Positions 18,346 through 54,488 are shown, counted from the stretch's first letter. The stretch: DNA of 64,000 nt from Candidatus Omnitrophota bacterium (GCA_043821445.1 JBDRCT010000033.1:5391-69390), one strand, 5' to 3'. Translations and numbers: made by a program. Notes: generated by a model from the sequence alone, not told the origin.

Positions 18346-18452
18346 AGATAGGAAACGTTTTTAAATAAACGCTTCCGTTTATGGCACAAATGCCCGCCTA
18401 AAGTTCATTCCCCTTCTATGGCAAATCGCCCGCAGAAAAATCTCTAACGGGG
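18346..18452 (+). mobile_element. MITE-like element, TIR family CCCCGTTAGAGATAGGA...TCTCTAACGGGG (copy 1, ~107 bp)
   Basis: Left terminus CCCCGTTAGAGATAGGAA, right terminus TCTCTAACGGGG (exact reverse complement); intergenic. Confidence 0.6.
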
Positions 18453-18615
18453 CAAGCCTCCCGAAATATTTTTTATATTCTAACATGGAGTCTCCCGGAA
18501 AATACGTTTCTTTTCAAACTCTAACCCCCTCATGCATTCGAGCGAGATTGCGAAGACATTTAGCCCTTTAAAAAAGCAGCGAAGTAGCGGGGTTTCTGGA
18601 TCCGAGGCAAACCCT

Positions 18616-19065
18616 TTACACCGTCTGAGCCGACTTCATGAGCCGTTCCAGGAACGAAGCCGTAAACGTCATGACCGCGATCGATAGAAGCGCGATACTA
18701 ATAACAACAACGGTCCAGACGATCTTCGATCGGTGCGAAAATTTCTGACTCTGCCATAAAAGAGGAAAAGCGAACGGACCGATCACGAGAAGCATAACAA
18801 TTACATAAGGAATCGCATCTTCTGAAAAAGTCCGCGGTCGACCTGAGGCAGTCTGGAAAGCATCCAAAGCCGCAGGGATCATCACGGCCAAATAGATCCC
18901 CCCCATTAAAAAGCAGGCCACTGCCGTGTGGCTGATGATCAGACTCACCGCGACCCCGACCCCCATACATAAAAAAGTCCATCCTTTGGCTCGTTCCCCG
19001 AGATAGATCTGACCGAGACCTGGAATAACCAATGAATAAAATAAGGCGAGACGGGGATCTTTCAT
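18616..19065 (-). CDS. hypothetical membrane protein (PGxGQxYLG motif)
   Basis: 149 aa, 4 predicted TM helices, VIPGLGQIYLGE motif near N-terminus. Confidence 0.5.
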   Translation of the reverse strand: MKDPRLALFYSLVIPGLGQIYLGERAKGWTFLCMGVGVAVSLIISHTAVACFLMGGIYLAVMIPAALDAFQTASGRPRTFSEDAIPYVIVMLLVIGPFAFPLLWQSQKFSHRSKIVWTVVVISIALLSIAVMTFTASFLERLMKSAQTV

Positions 19066-20117
19066 GCAGGGGCTTGAGTTCCGGTAGGTATTATTTTCTT
19101 TTCAAGGAATTTTCCGCTCCGTTCGATCTGGAATACTTGTACTTCCCCATCTTTTTGGGCCAGGATCGCACGGTAATAGTTCTTCCAGCCGTCGAGCAGA
19201 AAGTTATTCTGTTTGAGCAGGATATCCCCCGGCAAAAATCCTTCCCGTGCTGCCGGAGAACCGGCGCGCACCTCTGTGATCTTAAATCGGAGTGTTTTGG
19301 GATCACGCTCCACACGGAATCCCATATGGGGCGCATCGGAATTCAGAAAAAAAATGCTCACTGGCAATTCCATTTCTCCCTCCTCACGAAGGATCGTGAA
19401 TTTCTTGAGGGATTCGCCCTGAACATTCAAAAAGAACCCGAAGAGATTCCCGGGCGTCACGTCCTGACCCGCGATCTTCAAGAGAACATCCCCATTGCGG
19501 AGCCCCTGTTCGTAAGCAAGCGTTGAGGGATCGGCCCCTGCAATGAAATAATGCGCCGTCTTGTCATCATAATGAAGATCGCAACCCAAGATCACGCTTT
19601 TGATGGCCGGAAACTTCGCCTCCACAAGCCGTTCATGAATATTCTTGCCCAGCAGTCCTTCGAACCTGCCGCGAGACCCGTCCTTCTTCCGGAAGCCCTT
19701 GGATGAAAAACCGGTTTTCCTTTTAAAATAGGCTCGGATCCCCACGACGGTCATAGTCGGATCTTTTTCCACAATGCCGATCTCGAGCGCGCAAAACCCG
19801 CTTGAGGACAGGCTTGGGGCTTTGGCCCACTCTTTATACTCTTTTTTATACAGAGGAAATGTCGCGGATTGGATATAACCACGGGCTTTGTCGGCCGTGG
19901 CGAGCGGAATCTTCTCAGCCTCCAGCGTCGCGAGCGTGGCGTTCCAGACCTCTTCAAAATTCCCGGGCAACGGGAACGAGCGGCCTTCGGACTTCGAGGA
20001 AGAGAGGGAAAATCCGGAAAAAAGAAGGCATAAAAAAAGCAGGCCGCAAAGTTCCCACGGCCTGCTTTTTTTAAAAGAAAGAACGGATCCCAAAGAATTA
20101 ACGCTCGAGCGTCTCAC
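19062..20117 (-). CDS. PDZ-domain lipoprotein
   Basis: Lipoprotein-like signal peptide; C-terminal PDZ domain (GSPAAREGFLPGDILLKQNN); 4-nt overlap with downstream gene. Confidence 0.6.
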   Translation of the reverse strand: MRRSSVNSLGSVLSFKKSRPWELCGLLFLCLLFSGFSLSSSKSEGRSFPLPGNFEEVWNATLATLEAEKIPLATADKARGYIQSATFPLYKKEYKEWAKAPSLSSSGFCALEIGIVEKDPTMTVVGIRAYFKRKTGFSSKGFRKKDGSRGRFEGLLGKNIHERLVEAKFPAIKSVILGCDLHYDDKTAHYFIAGADPSTLAYEQGLRNGDVLLKIAGQDVTPGNLFGFFLNVQGESLKKFTILREEGEMELPVSIFFLNSDAPHMGFRVERDPKTLRFKITEVRAGSPAAREGFLPGDILLKQNNFLLDGWKNYYRAILAQKDGEVQVFQIERSGKFLEKKIIPTGTQAPA

Positions 20118-20475
20118 CCTTCATCGCCACCTCAGGCCCCACCGGAACCTTAAAAAAAGCGTCCGAGGCGCTCCAGATGTGGTTGAACATCAGGATCCCG
20201 ATACCGACCCAGATCACGGGATAACCGACGAGCGTTCCGAGAAGGATCGTGGTCACAATGCCCCCGATCTCGAGAACGATCATGGTACCGGTCTTGATCT
20301 TGCCGCTCTTGGTGTCCATTTCGTTGTTCAGGTATTGCCCCCAACCCGGCAGCACCAACGATGCCGCGCCGCGGGTCAAGCTTTTGTCCGCGTTGCCTTC
20401 TGCGGCATAAGCCACGCCGCTTACGGCCATGAACATGGCCACGGCCACCGTCATACTAATGATCTTCTTGAACAT
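20098..20475 (-). CDS. small secreted/membrane protein with PGWGQYL motif
   Basis: Signal peptide MFKKIISMTVAVAMFMAVSGVAYA; LPGWGQYLNN motif related to the 18616..19065 protein. Confidence 0.45.
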   Translation of the reverse strand: MFKKIISMTVAVAMFMAVSGVAYAAEGNADKSLTRGAASLVLPGWGQYLNNEMDTKSGKIKTGTMIVLEIGGIVTTILLGTLVGYPVIWVGIGILMFNHIWSASDAFFKVPVGPEVAMKGETLER

Positions 20476-20598
20476 AATCGCCTCCCTTTGTTTATTTCTA
20501 TGACGCCCCTAGTTATCGACCATTCCTCGAGAAGTTTAATTACAAGCCTACGCCGCGTCAAGAATCTCTTTAGAACAGAAGCCTGAAGTGCTGAAGGC

Positions 20599-22569
20599 CT
20601 ATTTGCTCGGTATAAGCCCGAATGCAAAACCTTTTTTTACCTTAGCGATAAGCTCGGGGAGAACTTCCTGATAATCGCGGACCATACCGAAATCCGCATG
20701 GCGAAAGATCGCGGCCTGAGGGTCCTGATTGATGGCGATGATCTTACCGGATTCTTTCATCCCCGCGAGGTGCTGGATAGCTCCGGAGATGGCGACGGCG
20801 ACATAGATCTTCGGACGGACGGTCTTTCCGGTCTGCCCGACCTGACGCGCATAGGGAGCATAGCCGTTGTCCACCGCGTGACGGCTCGCGCCCCAATCCG
20901 CGTTAATACCCTGATCTTGCAAGGCCTTCGCGAGTTCCTGGACCAGCTTGAAATTGTCGTGATCGCCGGCCGGCCGGCCCCCGGAAATAATGATATCCGC
21001 CACAAAGAGGTTGTCGCCGCCTCCCGCCTCGCGCTTGACTTCGATCACCTCCACCGCGAAATCACTTTCCCTGAAGGTGGGCATAAATTCGCGAACGGTC
21101 CCTTTCCGGTTTGTGTCTTTTGGCAATATTTTGAAAGTCCCGGCTCGCGCGGTCGCCATCTGCGGACACCAGAACCCGATGATGGTCGCAAGCTTACTTT
21201 CGCCGTAAGTCGGACGGATGGATTCAAGGCATGGATACATGATCGCTTTTCGAATGCGGTGCACATATTCCCCGACATTTAGGCTTGTGCAATCCGCCGT
21301 CACGCCGGCCCTCACGCGGCTCGCGAGCCTCGGTGCGAGTTCGCGGCCCGAAGTCGTTGCTCCAAAAAGCGCGATCTCAGGCCGTTGATGCTCCATCCAC
21401 TGCGCGAGAACAGCCGCCACCGGAAGGATCCTGTACTCTTTGAGGCGCGGATCATCCACGATCACGACCTCGTCGGCGCCTTGCGCGATGATCTCGGAAG
21501 CCACGTTCTTGATGTTATGCCCGGTCACGACCGCAGTCACCTGGGTCTGGAGTTGGTCCGCCAGCTTCCTTGCAGGATTCAGGATCTCAAGGGAAGAGCG
21601 TGCCGGTGTTTGTCCGTGCATTTCGATCCAGGTCAGAATGCCCCGTGCGCCGTTGCGGAAATCCACTCTTGGAAAGTCTACATCCGCTGTGGCCTTTTCC
21701 CCATCCGCACCTTTTTCATCTCCGGACCCCGCATGTTCTCCGTGGCCTCCGCTGATCGTGTCCTTGATCTTTTCGATCTCGGAGACAAAAGCCTCCACAA
21801 GATCTTTGGGCTCACGACCGGAGATCATGTTGACCGGCGGCCTGTCTTTTTGAATATCCACGACCTTCGACACGAGCGTCGGTGACCCATTGAGACCTAC
21901 CACGCTGGCGTCAGCCCCGGTTTGATCAAGCGTCCAAACCTCCGTCTGGGTGTTCTTCGCACGGATCGCTCCTTTGAGAGAGGGCCGGCGCGCCGGGGTC
22001 GCGGTCGGAGCAATAGAAATAAGACACGGGATGGGAACTTTGAGGACTTGATACCCCCCTTCGATGATGCGGCGGACCTTCAGATGGTCTCCCTTGAATT
22101 CTACCTTTTCTACAAAGGTCGCTTGAGAGATCCCAAGATTTTCCGCGGTCTGAGAAGGCACATGCGCCGTATCCCCGTCTGTTGTCTGGCGCCCGGAGAA
22201 AATGATGAAGGGATCCTTACTCTCTTTGGAGAATCCGAGCTTTTTGAGAAGCGAAGCGATCGCATGGCCGGTGGCGAACGTGTCCGACCCTCCAAGCTTC
22301 CTATCCGAGAGCAGTACCGCGCGGTCATACCCCATGGCCAAGGCCTTTTTAAGCGATTGTTCAAAACTCATGGGCCCCATCGAAACCACGATCAATTCCG
22401 CGTCCGGAACACACTTTTTGATCTGAAGCCCTTGCTCCAGGCCGAACGTACAGTCGGCATTGATCGAGGATTTCGCCTTGGTGCGGTCCATAAGCCCGTC
22501 GGCGCCCATCCGCATCTCGGTCGGGAGCGGCACTTGCTTCATGATGGTGATGATCTTTAAGCCCATATC
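20599..22569 (-). CDS. electron transfer flavoprotein, fused beta (N-terminal) and alpha (C-terminal) subunits
   Basis: Single 657-aa ORF: residues ~1-260 are EtfB-like (MGLKIITIMKQVP...VSMGP), a Gly/Asp-rich linker, then an EtfA-like domain with FAD-binding C-terminus (IYVAVAISGAIQHLAGM...IIAINQDPQAAIF). Confidence 0.8.
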   Translation of the reverse strand, partial: DMGLKIITIMKQVPLPTEMRMGADGLMDRTKAKSSINADCTFGLEQGLQIKKCVPDAELIVVSMGPMSFEQSLKKALAMGYDRAVLLSDRKLGGSDTFATGHAIASLLKKLGFSKESKDPFIIFSGRQTTDGDTAHVPSQTAENLGISQATFVEKVEFKGDHLKVRRIIEGGYQVLKVPIPCLISIAPTATPARRPSLKGAIRAKNTQTEVWTLDQTGADASVVGLNGSPTLVSKVVDIQKDRPPVNMISGREPKDLVEAFVSEIEKIKDTISGGHGEHAGSGDEKGADGEKATADVDFPRVDFRNGARGILTWIEMHGQTPARSSLEILNPARKLADQLQTQVTAVVTGHNIKNVASEIIAQGADEVVIVDDPRLKEYRILPVAAVLAQWMEHQRPEIALFGATTSGRELAPRLASRVRAGVTADCTSLNVGEYVHRIRKAIMYPCLESIRPTYGESKLATIIGFWCPQMATARAGTFKILPKDTNRKGTVREFMPTFRESDFAVEVIEVKREAGGGDNLFVADIIISGGRPAGDHDNFKLVQELAKALQDQGINADWGASRHAVDNGYAPYARQVGQTGKTVRPKIYVAVAISGAIQHLAGMKESGKIIAINQDPQAAIFRHADFGMVRDYQEVLPELIAKVKKGFAFGLIPSK

Positions 22570-24250
22570 ACAAGTTCTCGTATTCCGGTCCGTCGCCGCC
22601 ATACGGCACGGCCCATTCGATGTTCCCGAAGGGATCTTTGATGTCACAGGTCTTGCAATGCACGCAATTGGCCGGATGAAGATGAAGGTCTTTTTTCCCG
22701 GTCTTTGAATTTGTTACGATCTCATAAACCTCGGCCGGACAGAAATACTGGCACGGCCCGCCGTATTTCGGGATACAGACGTCCCGGCAAAGATTGAAGT
22801 CCAGTACCCGGAGATGGCACGGTTGCTCTTCGTCGTGCTTGGAACCGGAGAAAAAAACGTCGGTCACTTTGTCGAACGTCAGCTGTTTGTCAAAAATGAG
22901 TTCCTTCGCGAAATTCTTGCAAAATGGTTTTTTGACGTCCGAGAGTTTCCTGTAACAAGCCGCGTCCTCGTGTGTCTTCATCTTTCCCGAAGGCGTGATG
23001 CCGCGTCCGCCGGTCAATATCTGCATCGCGAAATGGAACGCCCCGAGGATCATCCCGTGCCCGAACCCGGCCCGGAAATTACGCGTGCGGGACAGGGTTT
23101 TGAATCCGGCGCTTTCCTTGAACAACTTCTCGTAAAGACCGAGTTTCTTCGCCGAGAAATCATTTTCCTTTAAGGCGCTGAACGCGGACTTCGCGGCAAG
23201 CATCCCGGACTCGATCGCGAGATGAACACCCTTCAGGCTCGGCATGCTGAGAAATCCCGCGGAGTCCCCGACGATCATGACCCCGTCATGGCAAAGCTTA
23301 GGCAAAGAATAAAGGCCCCCTTCCGGGATCGTCTTGGCACCGTAGCACAGAAGCTTCCCCTTTTCGAAGATCTTGGCGATGAAAGGATGTTTTTTATAGA
23401 CCTGGAGCGCCGCGTGGGAATCGAACGTGGGGTCCGTATAATCCAGCCCCGCCGCGATCCCGACCACGGCCTGGCGTCCGTTCAGGCCGTAAATGAAACC
23501 GCCGCCGAAGTGATTGAAAGAGAAAGGAAACCCGAGCGTGTGCATGATACGCCCGGCCTCAAAAGTCCCTTCCGGAAGGTCCCAAAGCTCCTTGACGCCC
23601 GTGGAATAAACCTGAGGATTGGAGTTTTCTTCCAAATTCAGTTTGCGGCAGAGCGCCTTGGTCAGACTGCCGCGGGGCCCTTCGGCCAGGATGGTAACCT
23701 TGGCGCGGATCTCGTTACCCGCCTGGAAATTATCCATCGGGTGTCCGTGCTTATCCACGCCGGTATCGATCGTCCTCGCCCCGATGACGCGGCCGTTCTC
23801 ATAGAGCATTTCGGAGACGCTGAACCCCGGATAAACTTGCACGCCCTTTTTCTCCGCGATCTCAGCCAGCCACCGCGTCATTTTCCCGAGAGAGACCACG
23901 AAATTCCCGTGATTTCCCATGAAAGGAGGCGTGAAAGGAGCTTTTAAAGCGAGTTTCGGGGTCAAAAAATAAACGCCTTCTTTTTTGACGGGAGATTCGA
24001 ATGGAAAATCCTTGGGGTCGACTCCGGGGAGGAGTTCCTTCAGCGTAGACGGATCGACCACAGCACCGGAAAGCGTGTGGCTCCCGATCAAACTTCCCTT
24101 TTCAAGGACCAGAATGTTCCAGGGAAGCTTGGCGTCCTCTCCTTTGGGAGCAGAGGCGGCCGCGAGGTCCGCAAGATGGATGGCAGTCGCGAGACCCGCA
24201 ACACCGCCGCCCACGATCAGAATGTCTGTTTCAACCACTTCGAACTTCGA
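22568..24250 (-). CDS. electron-transfer-flavoprotein:quinone oxidoreductase (FixC-like flavoprotein with C-terminal 4Fe-4S ferredoxin domain)
   Basis: N-terminal FAD motif ILIVGGGVAGLATAIHL; C-terminal CVHCKTCDIKDP ferredoxin motif; stop overlaps start of the EtfBA fusion gene. Confidence 0.85.
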   Translation of the reverse strand, partial: SKFEVVETDILIVGGGVAGLATAIHLADLAAASAPKGEDAKLPWNILVLEKGSLIGSHTLSGAVVDPSTLKELLPGVDPKDFPFESPVKKEGVYFLTPKLALKAPFTPPFMGNHGNFVVSLGKMTRWLAEIAEKKGVQVYPGFSVSEMLYENGRVIGARTIDTGVDKHGHPMDNFQAGNEIRAKVTILAEGPRGSLTKALCRKLNLEENSNPQVYSTGVKELWDLPEGTFEAGRIMHTLGFPFSFNHFGGGFIYGLNGRQAVVGIAAGLDYTDPTFDSHAALQVYKKHPFIAKIFEKGKLLCYGAKTIPEGGLYSLPKLCHDGVMIVGDSAGFLSMPSLKGVHLAIESGMLAAKSAFSALKENDFSAKKLGLYEKLFKESAGFKTLSRTRNFRAGFGHGMILGAFHFAMQILTGGRGITPSGKMKTHEDAACYRKLSDVKKPFCKNFAKELIFDKQLTFDKVTDVFFSGSKHDEEQPCHLRVLDFNLCRDVCIPKYGGPCQYFCPAEVYEIVTNSKTGKKDLHLHPANCVHCKTCDIKDPFGNIEWAVPYGGDGPEYENL

Positions 24251-24382
24251 CATAGGAATATGAGATCTCTCGAGAGGAAATTCTAAAAATTGAGGCGGTA
24301 TTTTAACATAAATTTGTCGGCGAAAAAGAGAAAAGTTGTTTTTTGCTCTAGAGAACAGCCACTGGAAGAAAATCAACCCCTG

Positions 24383-24488
24383 CCCCGTTAGAAAAAAACG
24401 GGATGTTGCTTTTGGTTATTTTACGCGTCTCTTCTCGCCACGCTTCTTCCTGTGTTCTGCAACAACCGGTGTCAGTTTTCTAACGGGG
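24383..24488 (+). mobile_element. MITE-like element of the same TIR family (copy 2, ~106 bp)
   Basis: CCCCGTTAGAAAAAAACGGG ... TTTTCTAACGGGG; right terminus provides the last three codons and the TAG stop of etfA. Confidence 0.55.
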
Positions 24489-25517
24489 TGAAGCGAGGAG
24501 CTCGTTCACCTTGGCCATAACGGCGAAGGCATCGGCCACGTAGAGCACATCGGCCTTCCCTTGGGCCCAGCCGCAATTGGCGTCCATATTGACCGCGCGG
24601 CGTTCGTTGATAAAGCGCCAGCCGACCACGTGCGGTTCTTCTCCGTGACAGCAGGTGGAAAGGCCCTTCGGATGACGCGGCGTGGCGCCGGTCTGTCCGA
24701 CCTGGTTGAGATGGCTCATGAAGGAAAGCACCGCTTCCCCTTCCGACCCCTGGTCCACGAGCGATTTGCTGCTCCCGAGCGAGGCCTTGGCGTGTTTCAA
24801 GAAATCAAGAATATGTTTTTCGGCTTCCTTGGCATGGATCTGGCCATCCACCTGTTTTTTGGTCCATCCGGCACCCGCTACGAGCAGCACCGCGGCCTCC
24901 GGGCGAATGGTCTGCGCGTCTGCGGAAGGCGCTTCAACACCCGTCACTTTTGTGCGCTTTTCCTGGTCCGTCACAGCAACGGCAACCGCTTCCATTTTCG
25001 CCGCGCCTTTGGCCCCCTGCCACACCTCGAACACGCCGGAATCCACGGCGAGGATCCACGGCCGCGCCGCGCGAGTCAGTGTCGCCAACATGCGCTGACG
25101 ATAGTACCAGCGCTGGACCTGCAAAACGCCGCCGGTGAACTGTAGGCCGCTCACATGCGTATCGATCGTGGCCTTTAAACGGAATGCCGCGCCGGGCAAT
25201 GCCCTGGAAAAACGGGACGTTGCAGGGGCAACGATGATCGTCGCTCCCGAAGCGGTTCCGATGGCTTCCGCGGCTTTCACATCCGTTGCGTAACGCGAGG
25301 TCCCGAAATCAGCACCGCTCACGCCGAGCATTTTTGCTGCGCCGCATGCCGCGATCGAATCCGCGGCGGCCTGGACATTCTCCCCGACAAGACCGACGGT
25401 AAGCGTGGAACCCGCGAGGCCTTTCTGGACCTCAAGCGCCGCGTTTAAGGTTTCAAGCGCGACCTTCGGAAGAAGGCCGTTTGCATCCGTATGAGCTAAA
25501 AAGAGTATTTTTTCCAT
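24480..25517 (-). CDS. etfA: electron transfer flavoprotein alpha subunit
   Basis: 345 aa, EtfA N-domain and FAD-binding C-domain; last codons (SPR-stop) are encoded by the terminal inverted repeat of a MITE copy. Confidence 0.85.
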   Translation of the reverse strand: MEKILFLAHTDANGLLPKVALETLNAALEVQKGLAGSTLTVGLVGENVQAAADSIAACGAAKMLGVSGADFGTSRYATDVKAAEAIGTASGATIIVAPATSRFSRALPGAAFRLKATIDTHVSGLQFTGGVLQVQRWYYRQRMLATLTRAARPWILAVDSGVFEVWQGAKGAAKMEAVAVAVTDQEKRTKVTGVEAPSADAQTIRPEAAVLLVAGAGWTKKQVDGQIHAKEAEKHILDFLKHAKASLGSSKSLVDQGSEGEAVLSFMSHLNQVGQTGATPRHPKGLSTCCHGEEPHVVGWRFINERRAVNMDANCGWAQGKADVLYVADAFAVMAKVNELLASPR

Positions 25518-25786
25518 TATAGCCGTCCCCCCGTTAGAGATAGGAAGCGCTTCAATCGATTCTTCAAAAAACGTTTCCCCATCCCTGTTTTTAAATATCG
25601 TTCCCTTACTACAGCATCATTGATATCTATACAAGCTTCGTAATAAATTACCTCGAAAGGACCGCGCCCTTTAGTTGAAGCAACCCTGCCCTGCGAATGC
25701 TCCTTGAAGCGCTTCCGTAAATCTTTGCAAAATCCGGTGTAGAATTTTTTATCCCTCTGACTTTGCAAAACATACGTATAAAACAT
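25517..25786 (-). CDS. small stand-alone GIY-YIG nuclease-family protein (YhbQ/UPF0213-like)
   Basis: MFYTYVLQSQRDKKFYTGFCKDLRKRFKEHSQG...GPFEVIYYE...ERYLK matches the GIY-YIG catalytic core; lies between etfB and etfA, inside a 281-bp element with CCCCGTTAGAGA/TCTCTAACGGGG termini; its TAA stop overlaps the etfA ATG. Confidence 0.75.
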   Translation of the reverse strand: MFYTYVLQSQRDKKFYTGFCKDLRKRFKEHSQGRVASTKGRGPFEVIYYEACIDINDAVVRERYLKTGMGKRFLKNRLKRFLSLTGGRL

Positions 25787-25809
25787 TCCTCAACCAATCT
25801 CTAACGGGG
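25529..25809 (+). mobile_element. 281-bp member of the same TIR family carrying the GIY-YIG ORF (candidate autonomous or cargo-bearing copy)
   Basis: CCCCGTTAGAGATAGGAAGCGCTTC at the left, TCTCTAACGGGG at the right; fills the etfB-etfA intergenic space exactly; internal 89-aa GIY-YIG gene with SD supplied by the terminus. Confidence 0.6.
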
Positions 25810-26619
25810 TTAACCTCTTATCCAGGTTACGATCTCTTGGGCGATCTCTTCGACCGGCGTATCTTTGACGATGCGTGTCTGGCGCTGCTGCTTCGGCAGC
25901 TCCACGCTTGCGAATTTGATGGCGTCGGTCTTGAGCGCCGCGGGGGTCGCCTTCTGAAGGGCCGGCATAATGGTACGCATGTTCGTCATCCCGACCTGAG
26001 GATTGTTCGGCGGTTCCGGAAGATTTCCGGTCGCCCATCCGATCACGGCCGGGGCCCCGGCGCATGTGGAAACCAGGTATTGCCCGCCCTCGATACGCTC
26101 GAGGACCCTGAACGAGCCGTCCGGCTGGACCTTGAGTTCGTCGGCTGCAAGAAATACGTCATGGATCCCGAGCTGTTCGGCGATCATCTGCATCGTGGTC
26201 CCCGCGTCACGCGAAGCGGAGGAACAGCCGCCGAAGACGAGAAGCTTCGTTTTATCAAGTCCCGGGATCTTCTCGATCGCCCCGGCCAGGGCCGCCGCGA
26301 CTTCCCTTGAATCCATAAAACCGCTCGCGGAACCGTCAAGGCACACAAGCTCGAAGGGGACCTTCTGGGCGATGATCATCATGAGCTGTTGGAGCTTGGC
26401 TTTGGGCCCGAGGCTTAGGAGCGTCACCTTGCTTCCCGGGTTCTGCTTCGCGAGATTTGAGGCCTCAAAAAGGGAGTGCCCCGCCCACGGGTCCAGCACC
26501 GAAGGCAGCATCATTTCATTCTTAAGAGCGGGTCCGGTCGCCCCCTGGATCGGCTCCAGCGTCTGGAGCGGGTCCGGCACCAGACTCCCGCAGACTACGA
26601 TGTTAAAAGCTGTCGTCAT
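25810..26619 (-). CDS. etfB: electron transfer flavoprotein beta subunit
   Basis: 269 aa, EtfB fold (MTTAFNIVVCGSLVPD...LLSLGP...). Confidence 0.85.
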   Translation of the reverse strand: MTTAFNIVVCGSLVPDPLQTLEPIQGATGPALKNEMMLPSVLDPWAGHSLFEASNLAKQNPGSKVTLLSLGPKAKLQQLMMIIAQKVPFELVCLDGSASGFMDSREVAAALAGAIEKIPGLDKTKLLVFGGCSSASRDAGTTMQMIAEQLGIHDVFLAADELKVQPDGSFRVLERIEGGQYLVSTCAGAPAVIGWATGNLPEPPNNPQVGMTNMRTIMPALQKATPAALKTDAIKFASVELPKQQRQTRIVKDTPVEEIAQEIVTWIRG

Positions 26620-26627
26620 AATTCCCC

Positions 26628-26697
26628 TCCTTAAAAAATCAATTGAAAATTAGGACTGCCCAAGTCGCCGTTCATTAAAAGAAAACCAAGACTTGGG
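26628..26697 (+). repeat. hairpin element of the same family (copy b)
   Basis: TTAAAAAATCAATTGAAAATTAGGACTGCCCAAGTCGCCGTTCATTAAAAGAAAACCAAGACTTGGGCG; flanked by 14-bp direct repeat CGTCATA(A/G)TTCCCC containing the etfB start codon. Confidence 0.6.
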
Positions 26698-26708
26698 CGT
26701 CATAGTTC

Positions 26709-26838
26709 CCCCGTTAGAGATAGGATGCGCTTCTACTTTAAGAGCGCATCCGCTTGTTAATGAAATATAACCTTTTAATCCTTTACCCTCCGATAGAAAT
26801 CTCTTTCAAAAATATCGTCAAACCGATCTCTAACGGGG
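26709..26838 (+). mobile_element. MITE-like element of the same TIR family (copy 4, ~130 bp)
   Basis: CCCCGTTAGAGATAGGATGCGCT... (9-bp perfect hairpin GGATGCGCT/AGCGCATCC) ... GATCTCTAACGGGG. Confidence 0.6.
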
Positions 26839-26929
26839 TAAACCTTCCCTATTGAATGATTTCTGGGGAAACCGCGTCTTTATTGGGTCACTGGGCGGAC
26901 ATTATAATGAGGGAACTACTTTTCGGCTA

Positions 26930-27012
26930 GTCCCAATTCCATTCAATCGAAGCGAAGCTGAGATTGGGGCAATCCTGGCTACCATTTTTCAAAAGAAAAC
27001 AAAAGTCAGGGC
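26930..27012 (+). repeat. family B repeat with downstream hairpin module
   Basis: GTCCCAATTCCATTCAATCGAAGCGAAGCTGAGATTGGGGCAATCCTGGCTACCATTTTTCAAAAGAAAACAAAAGTCAGGGCAG. Confidence 0.5.
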
Positions 27013-27108
27013 AGTATCTTTTTGTTCAAGTACGCTAAAGACCCGGTCTTAAAAGGCTCTCAAAGACCGGGTCTTGGAATGGGTGTGCGGGGACTCACCC
27101 GTCTCTGC

Positions 27109-27222
27109 CTAAAATTTTCTTTCCCTCCTTTTTTCTTCCTTGATCTTTCTCTTCTCCATCAGCGTATGTTTGGCAGCCTTCTTCTGCGAACCTCTTTCTT
27201 TTCCCTTGTCTTGCGTTCCCAT
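27109..27222 (-). CDS. candidate 37-aa highly basic small protein
   Basis: Not in ORF track (<60 aa): ATG at ~27220-27222 (minus) preceded by AAGGAGA at -8; MGTQDKGKERGSQKKAAKHTLMEKRKIKEEKRRERKF. Confidence 0.3.
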   Translation of the reverse strand: MGTQDKGKERGSQKKAAKHTLMEKRKIKEEKRRERKF

Positions 27223-27282
27223 AAATTTTCTCCTTGATCATTGGGCCATTAGAATTGAAAAGAAAACGTCGGCATATACATT

Positions 27283-27696
27283 CTATTCTTCCGCGGGCCG
27301 GGCGCGGAGTTTTTTAAGCGCGCCGTGTTTCTGCTTAGCGTCGAGCATTTTGTCTTTAGCCCGCTTGGAACGTTTCCGTTTCTGCCGCCGGACCTTGGCG
27401 GTCCGTCGGGCCTCCTCACTCTCCCGCCCCAGGACCCGCTCTTCCAGTTTTTCCGTCAACATCCGGCGTGCCCGGTACCGGTTCATGGCTTGCGTGCGTT
27501 CTTGCTGGCATTTGACGATCAGTCCGGTGGGCTTGTGTTTCAGAAGAACGCACGTGGAGACTTTGTTGACGTTCTGACCCCCCGGTCCCCCGGAGCGCAC
27601 GAACGATTCCTCAAGATCTTGCTCGCGGATCCCGAGCCGCTCCATTTTCCCCGCAAGCCCCTGTTGCTTCTTTTCAGATACCGGATAAATATTCAT
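27283..27696 (-). CDS. arfB: alternative ribosome-rescue factor ArfB (peptidyl-tRNA hydrolase, GGQ family)
   Basis: 137 aa, [14 protein letters not shown] motif and basic C-terminal tail, as in ArfB/YaeJ. Confidence 0.8.
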
Positions 27697-29452: not shown

Positions 29453-29455
29453 TGA

Positions 29456-38029: not shown

Positions 38030-38048
38030 AGGAAAACCTCATTGGTAG

Positions 38049-38110: not shown

Positions 38111-38112
38111 TG

Positions 38113-45361: not shown

Positions 45362-45464
45362 AATACCATCCTCCGTTAAAAGCGCTCTTAAGGAACCAGG
45401 AACATGTTTTCGCGTTCACGGATCGCTCCGTGAAGACCTTTTTTATATCAAAAAAGAACAGGGA

Positions 45465-48524: not shown

Positions 48525-48542
48525 TGTCTAAGATTCTTTTCC

Positions 48543-48679: not shown

Positions 48680-48683
48680 ACAG

Positions 48684-49703: not shown

Positions 49704-49727
49704 GGAGATGCTCCTTGGGTAGAAAAC

Positions 49728-50870
49728 TCAGACGCGGGAAGCAATGATCTTTGCCACGGCATCAGGCGTAATGTCGCCGTGTTCACCAAAAACAGAGTCT
49801 CTCTCTTTGAAGCGTTCACGCACTTTGCGAGCGGCCTCCTTGGCGGAGATCTTGTAGTCGCCAAGACGCGTCGGCATCTTCATGGAATGAAAAAACGTTT
49901 CGGTTTTCAGGATGGCCTCTTTCGCGGTCTTAACATTCCAAATGCGTTGCCCATACTGTTCCAGTTTTTTCTTTTTTGCGGTCAATTTATATTGCCAGAC
50001 CCCCGGAAGAACAATCGCCAGGGTTTCCGCGTGATCAAGCCCGTAAAAAGCGGTCAACTCGTGGGCGATCATGTGTGTCGACCAATCCTGCGGCACGCCG
50101 CAACCGATCAAAGTATTCAACGCAAGCGCCGCGCTCCACATGAATGTCGCGCGGGCCTCATAGTCCTTGGGCTTGTTCAAGGCCAAAGGCGCCACTTCGA
50201 TCAAGGTTTGAAGAAGCGATTCCGCCATCCGGTCCTGGAGCGGAGCATGCGCCGGATATGTCATGTACTGCTCCATCACGTGCACGAACGCGTCCACGAT
50301 CCCATTGCGCACTTGCTTGACGGGTAATGAAAATGTCGTTTCGGGATCCAAGACAGAGAACCGGGGAAACACGTGAGGCGAAAAAAAATAAAGCTTTTCC
50401 CGGGTCGCCCCCCGGGAGATCACAGAATTTCCGTTCACTTCGGAGCCCGTCGCGGGAAGCGTCAACACGGTGCCGATCGGGAGCGCTGTTTTGACATTGG
50501 CGCCGTCTTCCAGAAGAATAGTCCATGGATCTGCTCCGCTGAAGCACGCTGCGGCCGCGATGAATTTCGCGGCGTCCAGGACCGAGCCACCCCCCACCGC
50601 CATGATAAAACCGATCTTTTCCTTTTTAACAACCTCGACGGCTTTAAGGCAGGTTTCATAGAGCGGGTTGGGTTCGACACCGCCGAATTCGGTCACGCGA
50701 TGGCCTTTGAGCGCGGCCTTGACCTGCGTGTAGACGCCGTTCTTTTTGATCGATCCACCGCCATAAAGAAAAAGCACGCCGAGATCTTTGGGAACACGTC
50801 CCGTGATCTCGCGGATCATGCCTTTGCCAAAAAGGACCTCGGTGGGATTTTTGTAAATAAAATTTTGCAT
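49728..50870 (-). CDS. iron-containing (group III) alcohol dehydrogenase, YqhD/butanol-DH-like
   Basis: GGGSVLDAAK NAD(P) motif, His-rich Fe site (HxxxH...H). Confidence 0.85.
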   Translation of the reverse strand: MQNFIYKNPTEVLFGKGMIREITGRVPKDLGVLFLYGGGSIKKNGVYTQVKAALKGHRVTEFGGVEPNPLYETCLKAVEVVKKEKIGFIMAVGGGSVLDAAKFIAAAACFSGADPWTILLEDGANVKTALPIGTVLTLPATGSEVNGNSVISRGATREKLYFFSPHVFPRFSVLDPETTFSLPVKQVRNGIVDAFVHVMEQYMTYPAHAPLQDRMAESLLQTLIEVAPLALNKPKDYEARATFMWSAALALNTLIGCGVPQDWSTHMIAHELTAFYGLDHAETLAIVLPGVWQYKLTAKKKKLEQYGQRIWNVKTAKEAILKTETFFHSMKMPTRLGDYKISAKEAARKVRERFKERDSVFGEHGDITPDAVAKIIASRV

Positions 50871-50956
50871 GAATAGCTCCTATCAAAGTGGACGCAAAGC
50901 CACAAACCATTGCCGGAGGGCTAGCTCAGGATGAGGCACCGCGACAACCCGCCTGT

Positions 50957-52396
50957 TTAATATTTATAATGCTCGGGTTTGTAGGGACCATCGAGAGGAA
51001 CGTCAAGATACTCGGATTGTTTTTTCGTAAGCCTTGTGAGCCGGGCGCCCAGTTTTTCCAAATGGAGCCGGGCCACTTCCTCATCAAGCTTCTTCTCAAG
51101 GCGATAAACGCCGGGCTTTTTAGGGTTCATCACCAGATCGATCTGCGCGAGCGTCTGATTCGTGAAGGAGTTCGACATCACAAAGCTCGGATGGCCCGTG
51201 GCACAGCCAAGGTTCACGAGACGGCCTTCCGCAAGAAGAATGATCGAATGCCCGTCCGGGAAAACATATTTATCGACCTGCGGTTTGATGTTGATCTTTT
51301 TGATGCCCGGCCACTTTTGAAGCTGAGCGACCTGGATCTCATGATCAAAATGTCCGATGTTGCAGACGATAGATTCGTCCTTCATCTTGGACATGTGTTC
51401 GGCGGTGATGACGTCGATATTGCCCGTCGTGGTCACATAGATATCCCCGATATCAAGCACATCCTCCAGTCGCGCGACTTGAAAACCGGCCATTGTCGCC
51501 TGGAGCGCACAGATCGGATCGATCTCGGTCACGATGACGCGAGCTCCGAAACCGTGCATGGCCTGGGCGCTGCCTTTGCCCACGTCCCCGTAGCCTAACA
51601 CCACGGCAACCTTGCCCGCGATCATTACATCGGTCGCTCGTTTGATGCCATCCGCCAGGGATTCGCGGCACCCGTAGAGATTATCAAATTTGGATTTGGT
51701 CACAGAATCGTTCACGTTGATTGCCGGGACCAGAAGTTTCCCCTGTTCCTGCATTTTGTACAGGCGACGAACGCCCGTCGTCGTTTCCTCGGAAACGCCT
51801 TCCCATTCCTTGACCACTCTGTGCCATTTCCTGGGATCGTCCTTCATGACCTTTTTCAGAAGTTTGAAAAGTTCGATCTCGTCCTGAGTGCCGACCTTCT
51901 TGTCGAGGATCTTCGGATCTTTCTCCGCGTCATAACCCAAATGGATCATGAGCGTCGCATCGCCCCCGTCGTCCACGATAAGATTCGGGCCCTTGCCGCC
52001 CGAAAAGTTGAGCGCCTGGAGCGTACACCACCAATATTCTTCCAGAGTCTCTCCTTTCCAAGCGAACACCGGAATGCCCTTCACGGCCAAAGCGGCCGCG
52101 GCATGGTCCTGTGTGGAAAAAATATTACAGGAGCACCAACGAACATCGGCCCCAAGCTCGATCAAAGTCTCGATCAGTACTGCGGTCTGGATCGTCATGT
52201 GGAGACTGCCCATGATCCGCTTGCCCTGAAGAGGTTTCTTGGGCCCGTACTTCTTGCGGGTCGCCATCAGCCCCGGCATTTCTTTCTCGGCCATATCGAG
52301 TTCCTTACGGCCCCAGTCGGCAAGCGAAAGGTCCGCGACCTTGAAATCGTTCTTCACTTTGAAAGCATGGACTTTCTTTTTGCCTTTTTTTGTCAT
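50957..52396 (-). CDS. ahcY: adenosylhomocysteinase
   Basis: SAHH motifs ([16 protein letters not shown]-like N-terminus, [13 protein letters not shown] motif); trimmed to MTKKGKK. Confidence 0.9.
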
Positions 52397-52412
52397 GGTC
52401 TTTTCTTCTAAG

Positions 52413-53597
52413 TTAAGCTGCACAGACGACTTTTCTGCAACCACAGTTGTCTTTGAGCTTCAGCGCTTTTCGAAGTTGATCGACCGCATCCGTTTTTTCC
52501 CATGTAAAACCGGCTTCCGAACGGCCAAAATGCCCGTACGCGGCGGTCTTATTGTAGATAGGACGGCGAAGATCCAAGGTCGCGATGATGCCTTTAGGCG
52601 TAAAATCAAAAACTTTCCGGACCGCTTCCACGATCTCTTCGTTGTCGAACTTGCTGGTCCCGAATGTTTCCACGCGGATCGAAACGGGTTCTGCCACGCC
52701 GATCGCGTAGGAAACCTGGATCTCACAACGCTTGGCGATGCCGGCGGCAACGATATTTTTTGCGACATAACGGGCAAAATACGCGGCCGAGCGGTCCACT
52801 TTGGAAGGATCCTTACCGCTGAACGCGCCGCCCCCGTGACGGCCCATGCCGCCATAGGTGTCCACGATGATCTTGCGACCCGTAAGACCTGTGTCTCCAT
52901 GTGGTCCGCCTACCTCGAAACGTCCGGTCGGATTGATGAATATCTTGGTGTTCTTGTCCATCAAGTTGGCCGGGATGACCTTCTTGATGACTTTTTCGGT
53001 CAGGTCCTTGGTGATCGTCGGAAGCGTCACATCCCCATCATGCTGAGAACTAAGCACCACGGCATCCACGCGCACCGGCACATCGCCATCGTATTCCACC
53101 GTAACTTGGCTCTTCGAATCCGGCCGAAGATACTTGATCTTGCCGCTTTTACGAACGGCGGTCAAATAACGGACGAGTTTTTGAGCGAGCATGATCGGAA
53201 GCGGCATAAGTTCTTTTGTCTCATTTGACGCAAACCCGAACATCATGCCTTGGTCCCCGGCGCCGCCCGTATCCACGCCCATCGCGATATCGGGCGACTG
53301 GGTATGGAGCGCAATATCCACCCGGCAGGTCTTATAATCGAAACCGATCTTGGGATCCACATAACCGATCTTCCGGATGATGTTTCGCGCAACTTTTTCG
53401 GCATCGACCTTGGTTTTGCTCGTGATCTCGCCGGCAATGGTCAAGCGGTCAGTCGTGGCCAGACATTCGCAGGCCACGCGCGACGTAGGATCTCCCGCAA
53501 GGTAGGCGTCCAGGATCCCGTCCGAAACCTGGTCGCAAACCTTGTCCGGATGTCCCTCGGAAACAGATTCAGATGTGAAGAAATAATGCCCTTTTTT
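52413..53597 (-). CDS. metK: S-adenosylmethionine synthetase
   Basis: [28 protein letters not shown]-terminus, [19 protein letters not shown] signature; the 510-aa track ORF is a spurious 5' extension through the upstream gene. Confidence 0.9.
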
Positions 53598-53607
53598 CAT
53601 AGTGGTG

Positions 53608-54366
53608 TTACTCCTTTGGATTTGTTGGGGTATTAACAATGGCGTTGGCTTTCCGATAAGAGTCGAGGTCACCGATATCCAACCATTTTCCCTTAAGAGA
53701 AGAAGCAAAGAGGCCTGACGTTTCAGCCAGCCAACGCATATAATGGCCGGGTTGGTCGGTATTATGGCCGCTTGTGATATACCTGTCAAGCAGGCTCCAA
53801 GTCTCCCGGGGAAGCCAATAGATACCGCTCGAGGCCAGCGTGGTGGCGGGTTGGGGCGGTTTTTCCTGAAATTCCAGGATCTTTCCCTCCTGATCGATCC
53901 TGACAAGACCGTAGCGCTTGGCCAGCTCTTTATCCCCAACATCATAGGCCGCGATCACTCCGTGTGGCCGTTTTTTTATTCCAAAATCAACGAACGATGC
54001 CAGGTCAAAATCGAAGAAATTATCTCCTGCGATCACTAAAAGATCGCAAGGACTGACTTTCTTGATCCTGATCACATAAGCCAGGTCCCCGATGGCCCCA
54101 AGGCGGGTCTCATTACTCATCGTGTGGTCGTTCACGACCTCAAGCGGCCAGGGATATTTCATTTTCGCCGCCCAAGCTTCAAAATGCCCGGCGAATTTTT
54201 GATTGCTCACGAGATAAACGGCCTGAACACCTTGAACTTTTTGGACGCGCTCCAGGATCCATTCCAGAATAGGTTTATCCCCCACTAAAAGCAGAGGCTT
54301 CGGCATATTCTCGGTCAGCGGGTAAAGACGCGTCGCATATCCCGCGCAAAGAACGATGACCTTCAT
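53608..54366 (-). CDS. sugar-phosphate nucleotidyltransferase (NTP_transferase family)
   Basis: [27 protein letters not shown]-x-G-T-R motif. Confidence 0.75.
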
Positions 54367-54373
54367 AAGTTCA

Positions 54374-54488
54374 CCCCATTAAAGGCAGGAAGCGCCTGCG
54401 GCACTTCCGTATGCTTCGAAAATCTCATCCGCGTATCTCTCCTTGTTTTCTGCAAACCCAAGAATTCTACCGTTGATTTCTAACGGGG
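54374..54488 (+). mobile_element. degenerate member of the same TIR family (copy 5)
   Basis: Degenerate left end CCCCATTAAAGGCAGGAAGCGCC; right end TTTCTAACGGGG overlapping the stop and C-terminal codons of the PGI/PMI-family gene. Confidence 0.45.

Follow-up and report, generated by a model that had tools for sequence, protein, structure and literature searches.

Inverted-repeat units of an Omnitrophota genome are probably very small transposable elements, with a GIY-YIG nuclease gene in the long form and MITEs as short forms

Bacterial MITEs (e.g., Correia/NEMIS, ERIC, RUP, MITEAba12), which have parent insertion sequences, are short non-coding copies at gene boundaries, co-transcribed with host genes and sharing their ends with a longer, gene-carrying form. 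The units described here have the same organization, including terminal inverted repeats and target-site duplication. However, their longer relative measures ~280 bp and encodes an 86-aa GIY-YIG protein, not a DDE, serine, tyrosine or HUH transposase; furthermore, an internal helix is formed by coding sequence, and the copies are not near-identical within a genome, while the termini are nearly the same over many phyla. REP/REPIN sequences with their RAYT (TnpA-REP) and the IS200/IS605 elements likewise have short inverted-motif doublets folding into a hairpin and, between inverted copies of these motifs, a gene for a small nuclease, and a folded single strand is likely to be what is recognized in both cases. 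On the other hand, RAYT and TnpA are HUH Y1 enzymes with covalent intermediates and our protein is of the GIY-YIG type, and REPINs are lineage-specific, vertically kept and without target duplication, whereas our units carry 4-bp duplications and cross phyla.

The catalytic domain is shared with free-standing GIY-YIG homing genes (phage T4 seg; I-TevI catalytic domain), which are likewise selfish genes between co-oriented host genes and depend on host transcription. Their products exceed 200 aa, whereas the protein studied here has 86 aa and no DNA-binding domain, and its element has, unlike those genes, terminal inverted repeats, target duplications and ORF-less mobile derivatives. Rickettsia palindromic elements are short palindromic units which can insert in frame into protein-coding genes, and this resembles the insertion of a 47-bp unit in locus L184 (see below); no associated gene is known for them, and their sequences and host range are unrelated to ours. 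Closest by sequence and fold are the stand-alone Slx1-like proteins (UPF0213: BH0048/1zg2, EF2693/1ywl; E. coli YhbQ group), which are equally minimal in size, with a single domain; branched DNA structures are the substrate of eukaryotic Slx1. We know of no function of UPF0213 proteins and of no report of flanking repeats. Our family differs from UPF0213/Slx1 in having a conserved basic C-terminal helix ending KRFLSLTG. Stand-alone prokaryotic Slx1-like proteins are described in the literature as representing the GIY-YIG domain in its minimal form (PMC1564403), and eukaryotic Slx1, partnered by Slx4, acts as a structure-selective nuclease (PMC7017083).

In the window, i.e., the whole stretch of 64,000 nucleotides that was analysed, the motif CCCCGTTAGAGA is found nine times with at most one mismatch (0.14 expected; none of 100 shuffles reaches nine). 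With three mismatches allowed, the whole window contains 51 matches against 49 expected, so that there is no halo of weaker copies. Five inverted-repeat units are present, all on the minus strand and between minus-strand genes (Table 1), and nhmmer with the full-length DNA profile detects no additional copies in the window. The five units occupy five different junctions inside 36 kb of one genome. The preliminary description was right as to the inverted pairs and their intergenic location, but counted five short copies plus a gene-bearing one where there are four plus one; its pair coordinates hold except for the first pair, which starts at 18337 and not at 18346, and the hairpin which it placed at each left (plus-strand) arm is seen in units 1, 4, and 5. 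As it had proposed, the 5′ repeat of short unit 2 is the source of the etfA residues P-R and of the stop codon (...LLASPR, stop), while EtfA ends ...LLAKG in most close relatives, and the repeat of short unit 5 ends the product of the SIS-domain gene (named there PGI/PMI-family) with ...PVRNQR. This gene and a 252-aa ORF resembling a nucleotidyltransferase are the neighbours of short unit 5, whose left arm is CCCCATTAAAGG; those of short unit 1 are a 149-aa membrane-protein gene and a thioredoxin-like gene.

The 3′ 37 nts of short unit 1 match positions 231–277 of the full-length profile (E 7e-4), and short unit 4 matches positions 254–277. The interiors of the window short copies are nearly unrelated, being only marginally more alike than shuffles (z ~2–4), and an intact 4-bp duplication is found at none of the five window copies. 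Such interiors are atypical for a recent MITE burst. Either the window short copies are of old age, or there is some other reason why their ends are maintained. The termini stay perfect where the interiors have diverged to near-randomness.

Table 1. Inverted-repeat units of the window and features of the gene-bearing unit.
Feature	Position	Strand	Remarks
Short unit 1, 116 bp, no ORF	18337..18452	-	exact 12-mers; hairpin ~18350-18377 adjoins 3′ repeat
Short unit 2, 106 bp	24383..24488	-	AGAAA/TTTCT repeat variant; immediately after etfA
GIY-YIG nuclease ORF, 89 aa	25517..25786	-	ORF list and Pfam PF01541
Full-length gene-bearing unit, 281 bp	25529..25809	-	exact 12-mers at both ends; 13-bp terminal inverted repeats
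3′ repeat of 281-bp unit	25529-25541	-	
P2 3′ arm TTGAAGCGCTTCC	25543..25555	-	inside codons L-K-R-F-L, 1 nt from 3′ repeat
P2 5′ arm GGAAGCGCTTCAA	25704..25716	-	inside codons D-L-R-K-R-F
5′ repeat of 281-bp unit (sense orientation)	25797-25809	-	
Short unit 4, 130 bp	26709..26838	-	upstream of etfB leader; 9-bp hairpin 26723-26751 adjoins 3′ repeat
Short unit 5, degenerate, 115 bp	54374..54488	-	3′ repeat decayed to CCTTTAATGGGG; hairpin 54388-54407

The 281-bp unit matches the profile over model positions 1–277 (E 3.5e-67) and is almost wholly taken up by the GIY-YIG ORF. The 5′ repeat lies ~15 nts upstream of the ATG, while the 3′ repeat provides the codons for the conserved C-terminus L-S-L-T-G, beyond which three more codons lead to a TAA abutting the etfA ATG. 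An AGGA Shine-Dalgarno supplied by the terminus had been suggested for this ORF. However, the TAGGA end lies at the 3′ end of the minus-strand ORF, where TCC-TAT-CTC-TAA-CGG-GG reads in frame ...F-L-S-L-T-G, and is therefore not a Shine-Dalgarno; a GAGG upstream of the ATG is found in the non-repeat leader adjoining the other terminus.

The encoded protein matches PF01541 with 52.6 bits (E 5.7e-14; cut-off 22.6), is 100% identical to P0001, a protein from an Omnitrophota MAG, and has 1746 homologues. Its AlphaFold2 model (pLDDT 92.8) finds its best fold matches in UPF0213 (1zg2) and Slx1 (7cq3, rmsd 1.9 over 72 columns), and also matches the I-TevI and UvrC folds. Among 60 sequences, Y5, R26, H30, and E50 are invariant, while conservation reaches at least 90% at Y3, Y16, and N76; by I-TevI numbering, these positions would correspond to the catalytic residues (two Tyr, Arg, His, Glu, Asn). 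Profile, conserved residues and fold all place the protein in the GIY-YIG nuclease superfamily. Asn76 is conserved here, while the Slx1 lineage is said to lack it (PMC1564403). The catalytic domain and one helix fill the 86–89 aa, leaving no DNA-binding domain of the homing-enzyme kind. An I-TevI-type homing endonuclease was rejected, as no sequence-specific DNA-binding domain is linked and the TIGR01453 match scores 23.2 against a cut-off of 56. A REP/RAYT or IS200/IS605 identity was likewise rejected, as there is no HUH Y1 transposase and the sole Pfam family matched besides GIY-YIG is T5orf172, below its cut-off.

Relatives of the protein with 70–85% identity occur in Omnitrophota, Patescibacteria and Flavobacteriales. 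Among 80 metagenome loci with long copies, chosen as the best by protein similarity, nearly all have the same 13-bp termini (N-CCCGTTAGAG-NN) in register with the ORF, and every C-terminus fetched ends ...KRFLSLTG, encoded by the repeat. The long form measures ~277–290 bp, with an ORF of 86–89 aa and the 5′ terminus ~10–15 nts before the ATG, and the repeat variants co-segregate with the gene lineages. The gene-bearing form is therefore no isolated case but what is regularly found in a conserved GIY-YIG family. Entropy at codon positions 1, 2, and 3 is 0.57, 0.40, and 1.26, and the last three codons do not vary at their third positions; therefore, the ORF is under purifying selection and, in addition, under a constraint at the DNA level.

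Seventy full copies have two covarying helices, P1 and P2, on which RNAalifold and explicit pair counts concur. P1 is the pairing between the two termini; P2, which stacks directly on it, pairs the codons RKRF with KRFL (codons 24–27 with 79–82; columns 101–113 with 262–274 of alignment A2). Overall, 96% of the P1/P2 cells are paired, as compared with 88% in shuffles and 30–50% with the partners slid, and double changes occur at 13 pairs. Within the 13-bp termini, 12 of the 13 positions are paired in 96–100% of the cells and five covary. The compensatory changes of P2 include changes at synonymous sites, and the wobble-wobble positions keep Watson-Crick pairs in 40/41, 41/41, and 38/41 cases (21, 28, and 21 expected). 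Since the codons of the element pair in P2, the coding sequence also acts as a structural signal. Mismatches of the G.U type (10) are no commoner than A.C (17), which, with these small numbers, weakly favours DNA pairing over RNA pairing. Folded as single-stranded DNA, the 281-bp unit forms P1 and P2 (z -4.7). Single-sequence folds of the units mostly have z of -4 to -6, including short units 1, 2, and 4 (-4.7, -4.0, and -5.0, respectively), with short unit 5 reaching only -2.1.

In loci taken without length selection, the short units measure 45–145 bp, have lost the ORF and keep P1, usually with a local, covarying hairpin where P2 would be. Of 134 short units, 42 have a perfect hairpin (≥6 bp) adjoining a terminus, two of these units having one at either end, whereas shuffles give 3.6; 38 different stem sequences occur in these hairpins. 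Some short units are visibly internal deletions of the gene; for instance, those of L123–L129 consist of profile positions 1–107 joined to 252–277.

Mobility is shown by the insertion sites in related loci. A 4-bp duplication of the target (TNNA, often G|TAAA) flanks 87 of 157 short units (14.8 expected; maximum of 25 in 500 shuffles) and 18 of 75 long units (5.3 expected), corresponding to 55% and 24%, respectively. In L184, a 47-bp unit is nested inside the gene of another copy, to which it adds, with its 4-bp duplication, 17 codons; removal of the unit and of one CTTG restores the conserved ORF, so that the empty site can be reconstructed. Because ORF-less units of 45–47 bp have their own 4-bp duplications, one being nested in a gene, they inserted as short units. 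Units are inserted within coding regions, namely in prepilin and ORF6N-like genes. Finally, orthologous junctions are devoid of units in relatives with 89–92% identical EtfA. The junction of short unit 1 is empty in L213, that of short unit 2 in L213, L211, and L216 (L217/L218 hold a comparable unit), and that of short unit 4 in L217, L211, and L213. The family thus has the terminal inverted repeats, the small size without coding capacity and the target-site duplication of MITEs. The MITE reading of the preliminary description is supported by the duplications, the empty sites and the gene-bearing form with shared ends; moreover, a gap-limited scan for the inverted-motif pattern finds it beyond the window, in at least 119 stretches of DNA distributed over many phyla.

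Nearly all gene-bearing copies that persist do so within operons and in sense orientation: the host ORFs flanking long units are co-oriented in 69 cases and not in 2, a bias inflated by the choice of the 80 long copies by protein similarity, which enriches expressed, intact genes. For short units the counts are 29 and 12. Gene-bearing units have no room for a promoter; the GIY-YIG stop codon often overlaps or abuts the start of the next gene, and the 3′ end of the unit often gives GGGG(T)GA right before the next start codon. L124 has its PGK/TIM junction occupied, as have L134, L149, and L157 to judge from the flank sequence; the etfB/etfA junction is occupied in the window, L217, and L216.

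The motifs thus probably serve as terminal inverted repeats for a family of very small transposable elements, with a long form carrying the nuclease gene and short forms that are non-autonomous MITEs. Alternatively, the units could be MITEs of a conventional transposon (e.g., with a DDE transposase elsewhere), the GIY-YIG gene being a passenger or a homing endonuclease gene which has colonised the MITE and passes from units that are occupied to units that are empty. A 4-bp duplication at A/T-rich TNNA and short termini starting with CCC are what classical cut-and-paste transposases make, the ends possibly resembling the piggyBac/IS1380 style, and duplications are rarer at long than at short units. 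Homing endonucleases are known among the GIY-YIG enzymes, and our protein weakly matches PHROG homing-endonuclease families in addition to TIGR01453. We nevertheless consider this explanation unlikely. The ORF is built in, as the terminus consists of its last codons and P2, in which compensatory synonymous changes occur, is made of its codons, which is unlike what is expected of a passenger gene; the repeat variants go along with the gene lineages, and the protein is without a DNA-binding domain such as homing enzymes use. Furthermore, the sole long form found carries the GIY-YIG gene: in ~1.3 Mb of related loci (8-kb genome pieces), these termini bound no larger element that has a different transposase, and none of the repeat pairs 340–7000 bp apart encloses one. 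As the other genomes were sampled in 8-kb pieces, they may have an unlinked transposase whose termini are the same.

It is very improbable that the gene is a free-standing homing endonuclease gene spreading only by double-strand-break repair between alleles, with P1 and P2 as mRNA structures throttling translation and the short units as decayed remnants. Like phage free-standing endonuclease genes, it lies between co-oriented operon genes, its stop codon often meets the next start, and single junctions (PGK/TIM; etfB/etfA) are occupied in several genomes. However, the ORF-less 45–47 bp units with duplications of their own do not fit this explanation, against which the nested insertion in L184 argues strongly, as do the five units at five junctions within 36 kb of one genome. 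In addition, the perfect termini despite near-random interiors and the lack of RNA-type wobble tolerance speak against it.

A role as host-serving operon punctuation, i.e., structured RNA like REP/ERIC/BIME or RNase III sites kept for stabilising, processing or coupling messages and not for mobility, would agree with the location at gene boundaries, the sense bias of the short units, the conserved ends with interiors free to vary and the GGGG(T)GA before the next start. It is highly unlikely, as the same junctions lack units in close relatives, target duplications and insertions within coding regions are present, and near-identical termini in distant phyla indicate horizontal spread. Rfam gives no match in the whole window at gathering thresholds and, for 18200–27000 up to E = 10, only chance-level matches, all outside the units. 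The units are not terminator-like either: region 18000–27400 has 15 terminator-like sites against 13.3 expected, none being the sense-strand hairpin of a unit, and an intrinsic terminator (G+C-rich hairpin plus U tract) was rejected. Finally, the units are almost certainly not integron-type attC sites (57–141 bp, with variable interiors between conserved inverted cores), which they resemble in size range, in variable interiors and in the likeness of GTTAGAG/CTCTAAC to the GTTRRRY/RYYYAAC core sites, because the core order is reversed on both strands (GTT core 5′ and AAC core 3′, where attC starts with RYYYAAC), the neighbours are housekeeping operon genes, direct 4-bp duplications are not an attC feature and the units enclose their own nuclease gene.

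As a very small transposable element, the long form would consist of one minimal 86–89-aa Slx1/UPF0213-like GIY-YIG gene between two 13-bp termini, and the ORF-less units would be its non-autonomous MITE forms. We infer that the Slx1-like protein may be the transposase, presumably expressed by read-through transcription and translational coupling. Having no DNA-binding domain, the nuclease would not recognize a long sequence but the P1/P2 hairpin or a branched DNA structure. It could cut the target and the base of P1, and the move would then be completed by repair or ligation on the part of the host. GIY-YIG enzymes hydrolyse DNA and, to our knowledge, are not known for strand transfer, so that the full transposition pathway would have to borrow host functions. 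We found no prior description of this transposable-element family, which is apparently a widespread and hitherto undescribed family of jumping DNA.

Searching the window for CCCCGTTAGAGA with at most one mismatch returned 9 matches against 0.14 expected, a number reached in 0 of 100 shuffles; when 3 mismatches were allowed the count did not exceed expectation, which indicates that the copies form a discrete set. The inverted 12-mer pairs of the preliminary description are therefore real, with minor errors: the first pair begins 9 bases away from the 18346 given there, and the gene-bearing copy is accompanied by four short units rather than five. A profile of full-length relatives found no further copy in the window. 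The check for a known structured RNA was negative, as an Rfam scan at gathering and E-value thresholds gave no match at the units, and a tRNA scan detected none in the window.

Inverted-repeat units and neighbouring features of the window
Feature	Positions	Strand	Remarks
Unit 1, inverted pair	18337-18452		
682-aa ORF, EtfB-like and EtfA-like halves fused	20599-22647	minus	adjoins ETF-quinone oxidoreductase-like gene
Unit 2, inverted pair	24383-24488		
281-bp long unit, inverted pair	25529-25809	minus	
17-codon ORF	26650-26703	minus	between unit 4 and etfB
Unit 4, inverted pair	26709-26838		
Low-G+C segment	28001-32000		starts just downstream of unit cluster
Unit 5, degenerate inverted pair	54374-54488		SIS-domain gene on one side, 252-aa nucleotidyltransferase-like ORF on the other

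The host genes of the cluster all lie on the minus strand, on which unit 4 is followed by a small leader ORF, etfB, the 281-bp unit, etfA and unit 2, and then by an ETF-quinone oxidoreductase-like gene, a fused EtfB-EtfA gene, three small genes, unit 1 and a thioredoxin-like gene. The fused gene, conserved in the related loci L213-L215, adds a second ETF system to the one formed by the separate etfB and etfA genes. The sequence and position of the 17-codon ORF (MTPKSWFSFNERRLGQS, then stop) are kept in the relatives L211 and L217, which suggests a leader peptide or upstream ORF of the etf operon. The segment of low G+C (0.42 vs about 0.52 in the rest of the window) was possibly acquired horizontally.

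The 281-bp unit reads from CCCCGTTAGAGAT through a 15-nt leader to an ATG and an 89-codon ORF, whose 3′ end (...AAG CGC TTC CTA TCT CTA ACG GGG) is itself the second repeat. The ORF encodes a GIY-YIG domain (Pfam E 5.7e-14). Its product is 100% identical to a protein from a Candidatus Omnitrophota MAG; looking up the GIY-YIG and EtfB proteins by exact match returned no record. At E < 1e-5 there are 1746 homologues, the best 120 of which are 70-85% identical, mostly 86 aa long, and belong to Omnitrophota, Patescibacteria and Flavobacteriales. Since all fetched C-termini end in ...GMGKRYLKNRLKRFLSLTG, the 3′ repeat is the coding sequence for L-S-L-T-G; the TAGGA formerly read as the Shine-Dalgarno sequence of this ORF is actually the antisense of codons F-L at its 3′ end. 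Across 80 metagenome loci encoding relatives, N-CCCGTTAGAG-NN and its complement bracket nearly every gene in register, and terminus variants alter both sides jointly (CCCC/GGGG, TCCC/GGGA, CACG/CGTG, AGAGCC/GGCTCT and others).

The boundary of the element was fixed by a nested insertion in the related contig L184, where a 47-bp unit interrupts a GIY-YIG gene. Removal of this unit and one CTTG joins ...YYEAC to VDKQDA..., which is the family consensus; the target duplication is thereby defined as 4 bp long, and the 13-bp termini mark the limits of the element. Two other units of this contig have TTTA/TTTA flanks and lie within the codons of prepilin-like genes, between G and FTLIEL. In L184:2460-3340 units occupy identical codon positions in two neighbouring prepilin-like genes, and the long-unit ORF of this contig continues in frame from ...LSVTG into FTLIEL..., re-creating a prepilin-peptidase-like G-F junction. 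Overall, the outer 4 nt are identical in 87 of 157 short units (shuffled-pairing mean 14.8, maximum 25 in 500) and in 18 of 75 long ones (mean 5.3, maximum 10). The sites duplicated around short units are TAAA (21), TTTA (21), TGAA (10), TTCA (8), TTGA (4) and TCAA (3), giving the target consensus TNNA, often TAAA preceded by G. The idea that the flanks are inverted extensions of the repeats (TTTA..TAAA cases, and a 10-bp case in L177) failed statistically, inverted 4-mer flanks numbering 5 vs 7 expected for long units and 2 vs 17 for short ones.

Empty sites were seen where the window has units, in relatives whose EtfA is 89-92% identical; at about 90% identity such comparisons prove presence or absence and are too diverged to give exact boundaries. 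A 4-nt spacer separates etfB from etfA in L213, L215 and L211, while a long unit occupies this junction in the window and in L217, and a remnant in L216; likewise, the unit 1 site is empty in L213 and the unit 4 site in L217 and L211. EtfA ends in ...LLAKG in most relatives and in ...SPR or ...QPR if a unit follows, in agreement with the preliminary description, in which the terminus supplied the C-terminal end of EtfA and of the SIS-domain (PGI/PMI-family) gene; host C-termini are indeed rewritten. None of the five window units retains an intact duplication, so they are probably old. The 4-bp duplications in related loci, the empty sites and the nested insertion support and extend the earlier interpretation of the units as a MITE-like family.

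Further insertions deserve mention. About 16 long units of the L131-L201 group (L146:1511-1787, L160:1895-2171 and L172:2438-2714 among them) sit in one host gene family that looks ORF6N-like (C-terminus ...FDAIRQLM..PKKRIGF..EEP.VPYK..), at several different positions in the 3′ coding tail; they replace the tail of the host protein, and some nuclease ORFs read in frame into leftover host codons. A splicing or intron-like reading was rejected, as excising units from the ORF6N-like genes leaves the frame unrestored. At the etfB-etfA junction of L216 (2200-2330), a second palindromic repeat, GTCATTCCCGCATGCTTTAAGCGGGAATC, accompanies the remnant 3′ end of the unit and looks like a different repeat family.

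The occurrence of the motif outside the window was also borne out. When one genome per species was scanned with the pattern, the gap being limited to 80-110 nt, at least 119 DNA stretches matched; among the matches listed are Omnitrophota, many Patescibacteria lineages, Planctomycetota and Deltaproteobacteria/Thermodesulfobacteriota, as well as Nitrospirae, Elusimicrobiota, Clostridia and others. In loci that were not selected by length, units are either short (45-145 bp) or long (260-290 bp), with almost none between. Some short units are evidently the gene with its interior deleted: in L123-L129, the genes for PGK and TIM enclose a long copy, and after it comes a 144-bp unit that combines profile positions 1-107 and 252-277. 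Most short units, including units 1 and 4, keep only the last 25-45 nt (hairpin and terminus), and the interiors of the window short units are barely above chance similarity. A perfect hairpin of at least 6 bp, 1-2 nt from the terminus, occurs in 42 of 134 short units vs 3.6 in shuffles, 2 of these 42 having it at both termini. The hairpins have 38 different stem sequences, which indicates that P2, the helix within the GIY-YIG coding sequence, survives as a covarying local hairpin. The window short units fold with z of -2 to -5 and are not terminator-like.

Some arrangements of short units are unusual. The 5.5-kb contig L155 carries one long and five mini units of 60-102 bp (242-5397), of which those at 242 and 1105 are identical with near-identical flanks, and thus lie inside a longer stretch of host sequence that is itself repeated. 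A tRNA is enclosed by only 2 of about 150 units: at L116:1610-1723 (Ser-CGA) and L035:5057-5166 (Ala-CGC), the repeat pair surrounds the complete tRNA with almost no spacer, and the sequences immediately outside resemble a degenerate, similar tRNA split in two, as though a tRNA-carrying unit lay within an older tRNA gene; the 4-bp duplication is absent at both. A tRNA-His(GTG) with a 167-nt insertion in its anticodon loop, called by ARAGORN in Wildermuthbacteria (L065:5260-5512), is unrelated to the units.

The fold of the long form was analyzed on an alignment of 70 full-length elements by RNAalifold and by explicit pair counting, which agree on the same two helices. P1 is the 13-bp pairing of both termini; P2, one nucleotide away, pairs over 11-13 bp the codons for R-K-R-F (residues 24-27) with those for K-R-F-L (residues 79-82). 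Paired cells amount to 96%, vs 88% in shuffles and 30-50% with the partners slid, and two-sided changes occur at 13 pairs; one P2 pair is A-U in 27 cases, G-C in 22 and C-G in 17. In four P2 pairs both partners are codon third positions; three of these pairs vary, and in them Watson-Crick pairing is kept in 40/41, 41/41 and 38/41 sequences, vs 21, 28 and 21 if codons were chosen independently. The entropies by codon position (0.57, 0.40 and 1.26) show that the gene is under purifying selection, and the invariant third positions of the last three codons show an additional constraint at the DNA level. Mismatches comprise 10 G.U and 17 A.C; G.U is not commoner, hence the wobble tolerance expected of a sense-strand RNA is lacking, and the counts weakly favour pairing in DNA. 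The window long unit folded as single-stranded DNA forms P1 and P2 (z -4.7).

The AlphaFold2 model of the protein (pLDDT 92.8) consists of a bare GIY-YIG domain and a long basic C-terminal helix. Its nearest solved relatives in sequence and fold are the uncharacterised UPF0213 proteins 1zg2 and 1ywl, eukaryotic Slx1 (TM ~0.6) and the catalytic domains of I-TevI and UvrC. Stand-alone prokaryotic Slx1-like proteins have been described as the minimal version of GIY-YIG (PMC1564403), and Slx1, together with Slx4 as its partner, acts as a structure-selective nuclease (PMC7017083). Because the nuclease has no DNA-binding domain, the most economical reading is that it would recognise the P1/P2 fold and not a long sequence. 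A role in defence was discarded: PADLOC gave nothing for the window protein and, for a homologue, one weak homing-endonuclease match (E 0.0035). A plasmid or phage vehicle was likewise rejected, with no plasmid match and only 4 distant viral relatives.

Orientation was called from ORFs and perfect hairpins, hairpin energy alone being too noisy. Host ORFs flanking long units are co-oriented in 69 cases and opposed in 2, a ratio that partly reflects the choice of the 80 loci by protein similarity; for hairpin-oriented short units the figures are 29 and 12. The long form leaves no room for a promoter. A stop codon directly follows L-S-L-T-G in 51 of 75 long units, and in one subfamily the end reads GGG-ATGA, so that the element stop overlaps a re-created host start codon; there, the original host ATG can start the nuclease ORF. 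Expression would probably occur by read-through transcription and translational coupling, and gene-bearing copies would remain intact only if expressed.

Taken together, the units probably constitute a tiny inverted-repeat element family with a GIY-YIG gene and miniature derivatives, an identity that is well supported. The mechanism of transposition we infer; abutted element ends would read ...TCTCTAACGGGG directly followed by CCCCGTTAGAGA... in circular or hairpin intermediates. We give about even odds to the further proposal that this is the first prokaryotic transposable-element family with a minimal 86-aa Slx1-like GIY-YIG transposase, which at ~280 bp would be smaller than any described autonomous element, its enzyme reading a DNA fold made partly of its own codons and not a sequence, and which would have spread over Omnitrophota, Patescibacteria, Planctomycetota, Desulfobacterota and other candidate phyla, seeding 45-145-bp hairpin MITEs, some in frame in genes. 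Alternatively, the units could be moved by a conventional transposase encoded elsewhere, and the GIY-YIG gene would be a passenger or a homing parasite. The 4-bp duplication is consistent with this explanation, which we nevertheless consider unlikely: both the terminus and P2 are structural parts of the gene, the GIY-YIG form is the only long form found, and in about 1.3 Mb of related loci these ends were not found around another transposase. A purely homing gene that leaves decaying remnants is contradicted by the short units, which bear their own duplications, and by the nested insertion. An RNA punctuation element serving the host is contradicted as well, since units are absent at orthologous sites, insert inside genes, and have near-identical termini across phyla. 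Integron attC sites are excluded by the core-site order.

The GIY-YIG element would behave as a MITE does together with its autonomous partner, and resembles the REPIN/RAYT pair in its hairpin doublets and in having these motifs on either side of a small nuclease gene; however, its enzyme is not HUH. Pfam finds no DDE-type domain in the GIY-YIG protein, and the protein scores below the cut-off of the homing-endonuclease model; the comparison failed on the enzyme for every family tested. Inverted-repeat elements that have miniature derivatives are a familiar kind; unfamiliar are the class of enzyme, the size, and the way in which coding sequence overlaps cis-acting structure. To our knowledge, prokaryotic transposon enzymes have so far been of the DDE, DEDD, serine, tyrosine, HUH or Cas1-type classes, and we know of no autonomous transposable element smaller than ~280 bp. 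The novelty claimed in the preliminary description held in literature searches by sequence and by topic (GIY-YIG with inverted repeats, transposase, MITE, UPF0213, Omnitrophota), which found no description; a groundwater study, which does not analyse it further, lists a GIY-YIG gene among those that other bacteria received from Patescibacteria (PMC12455944).

For annotation, the termini matter as they rewrite host C-termini (e.g., those of EtfA and the SIS-domain gene product) and produce spurious N-terminal extensions; whole units can also insert in frame into genes. A very small structure-guided nuclease with defined DNA ends may also be of practical interest. If the GIY-YIG protein mobilises the element, it would represent a new catalytic class of prokaryotic transposon enzyme, and would show that an autonomous element can be as small as one 86-codon gene doubling as terminal repeat and internal helix. 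This would offer a testable function for the large, uncharacterised UPF0213/Slx1-like family of stand-alone nucleases, and the element traces a path by which genes move between uncultivated phyla.
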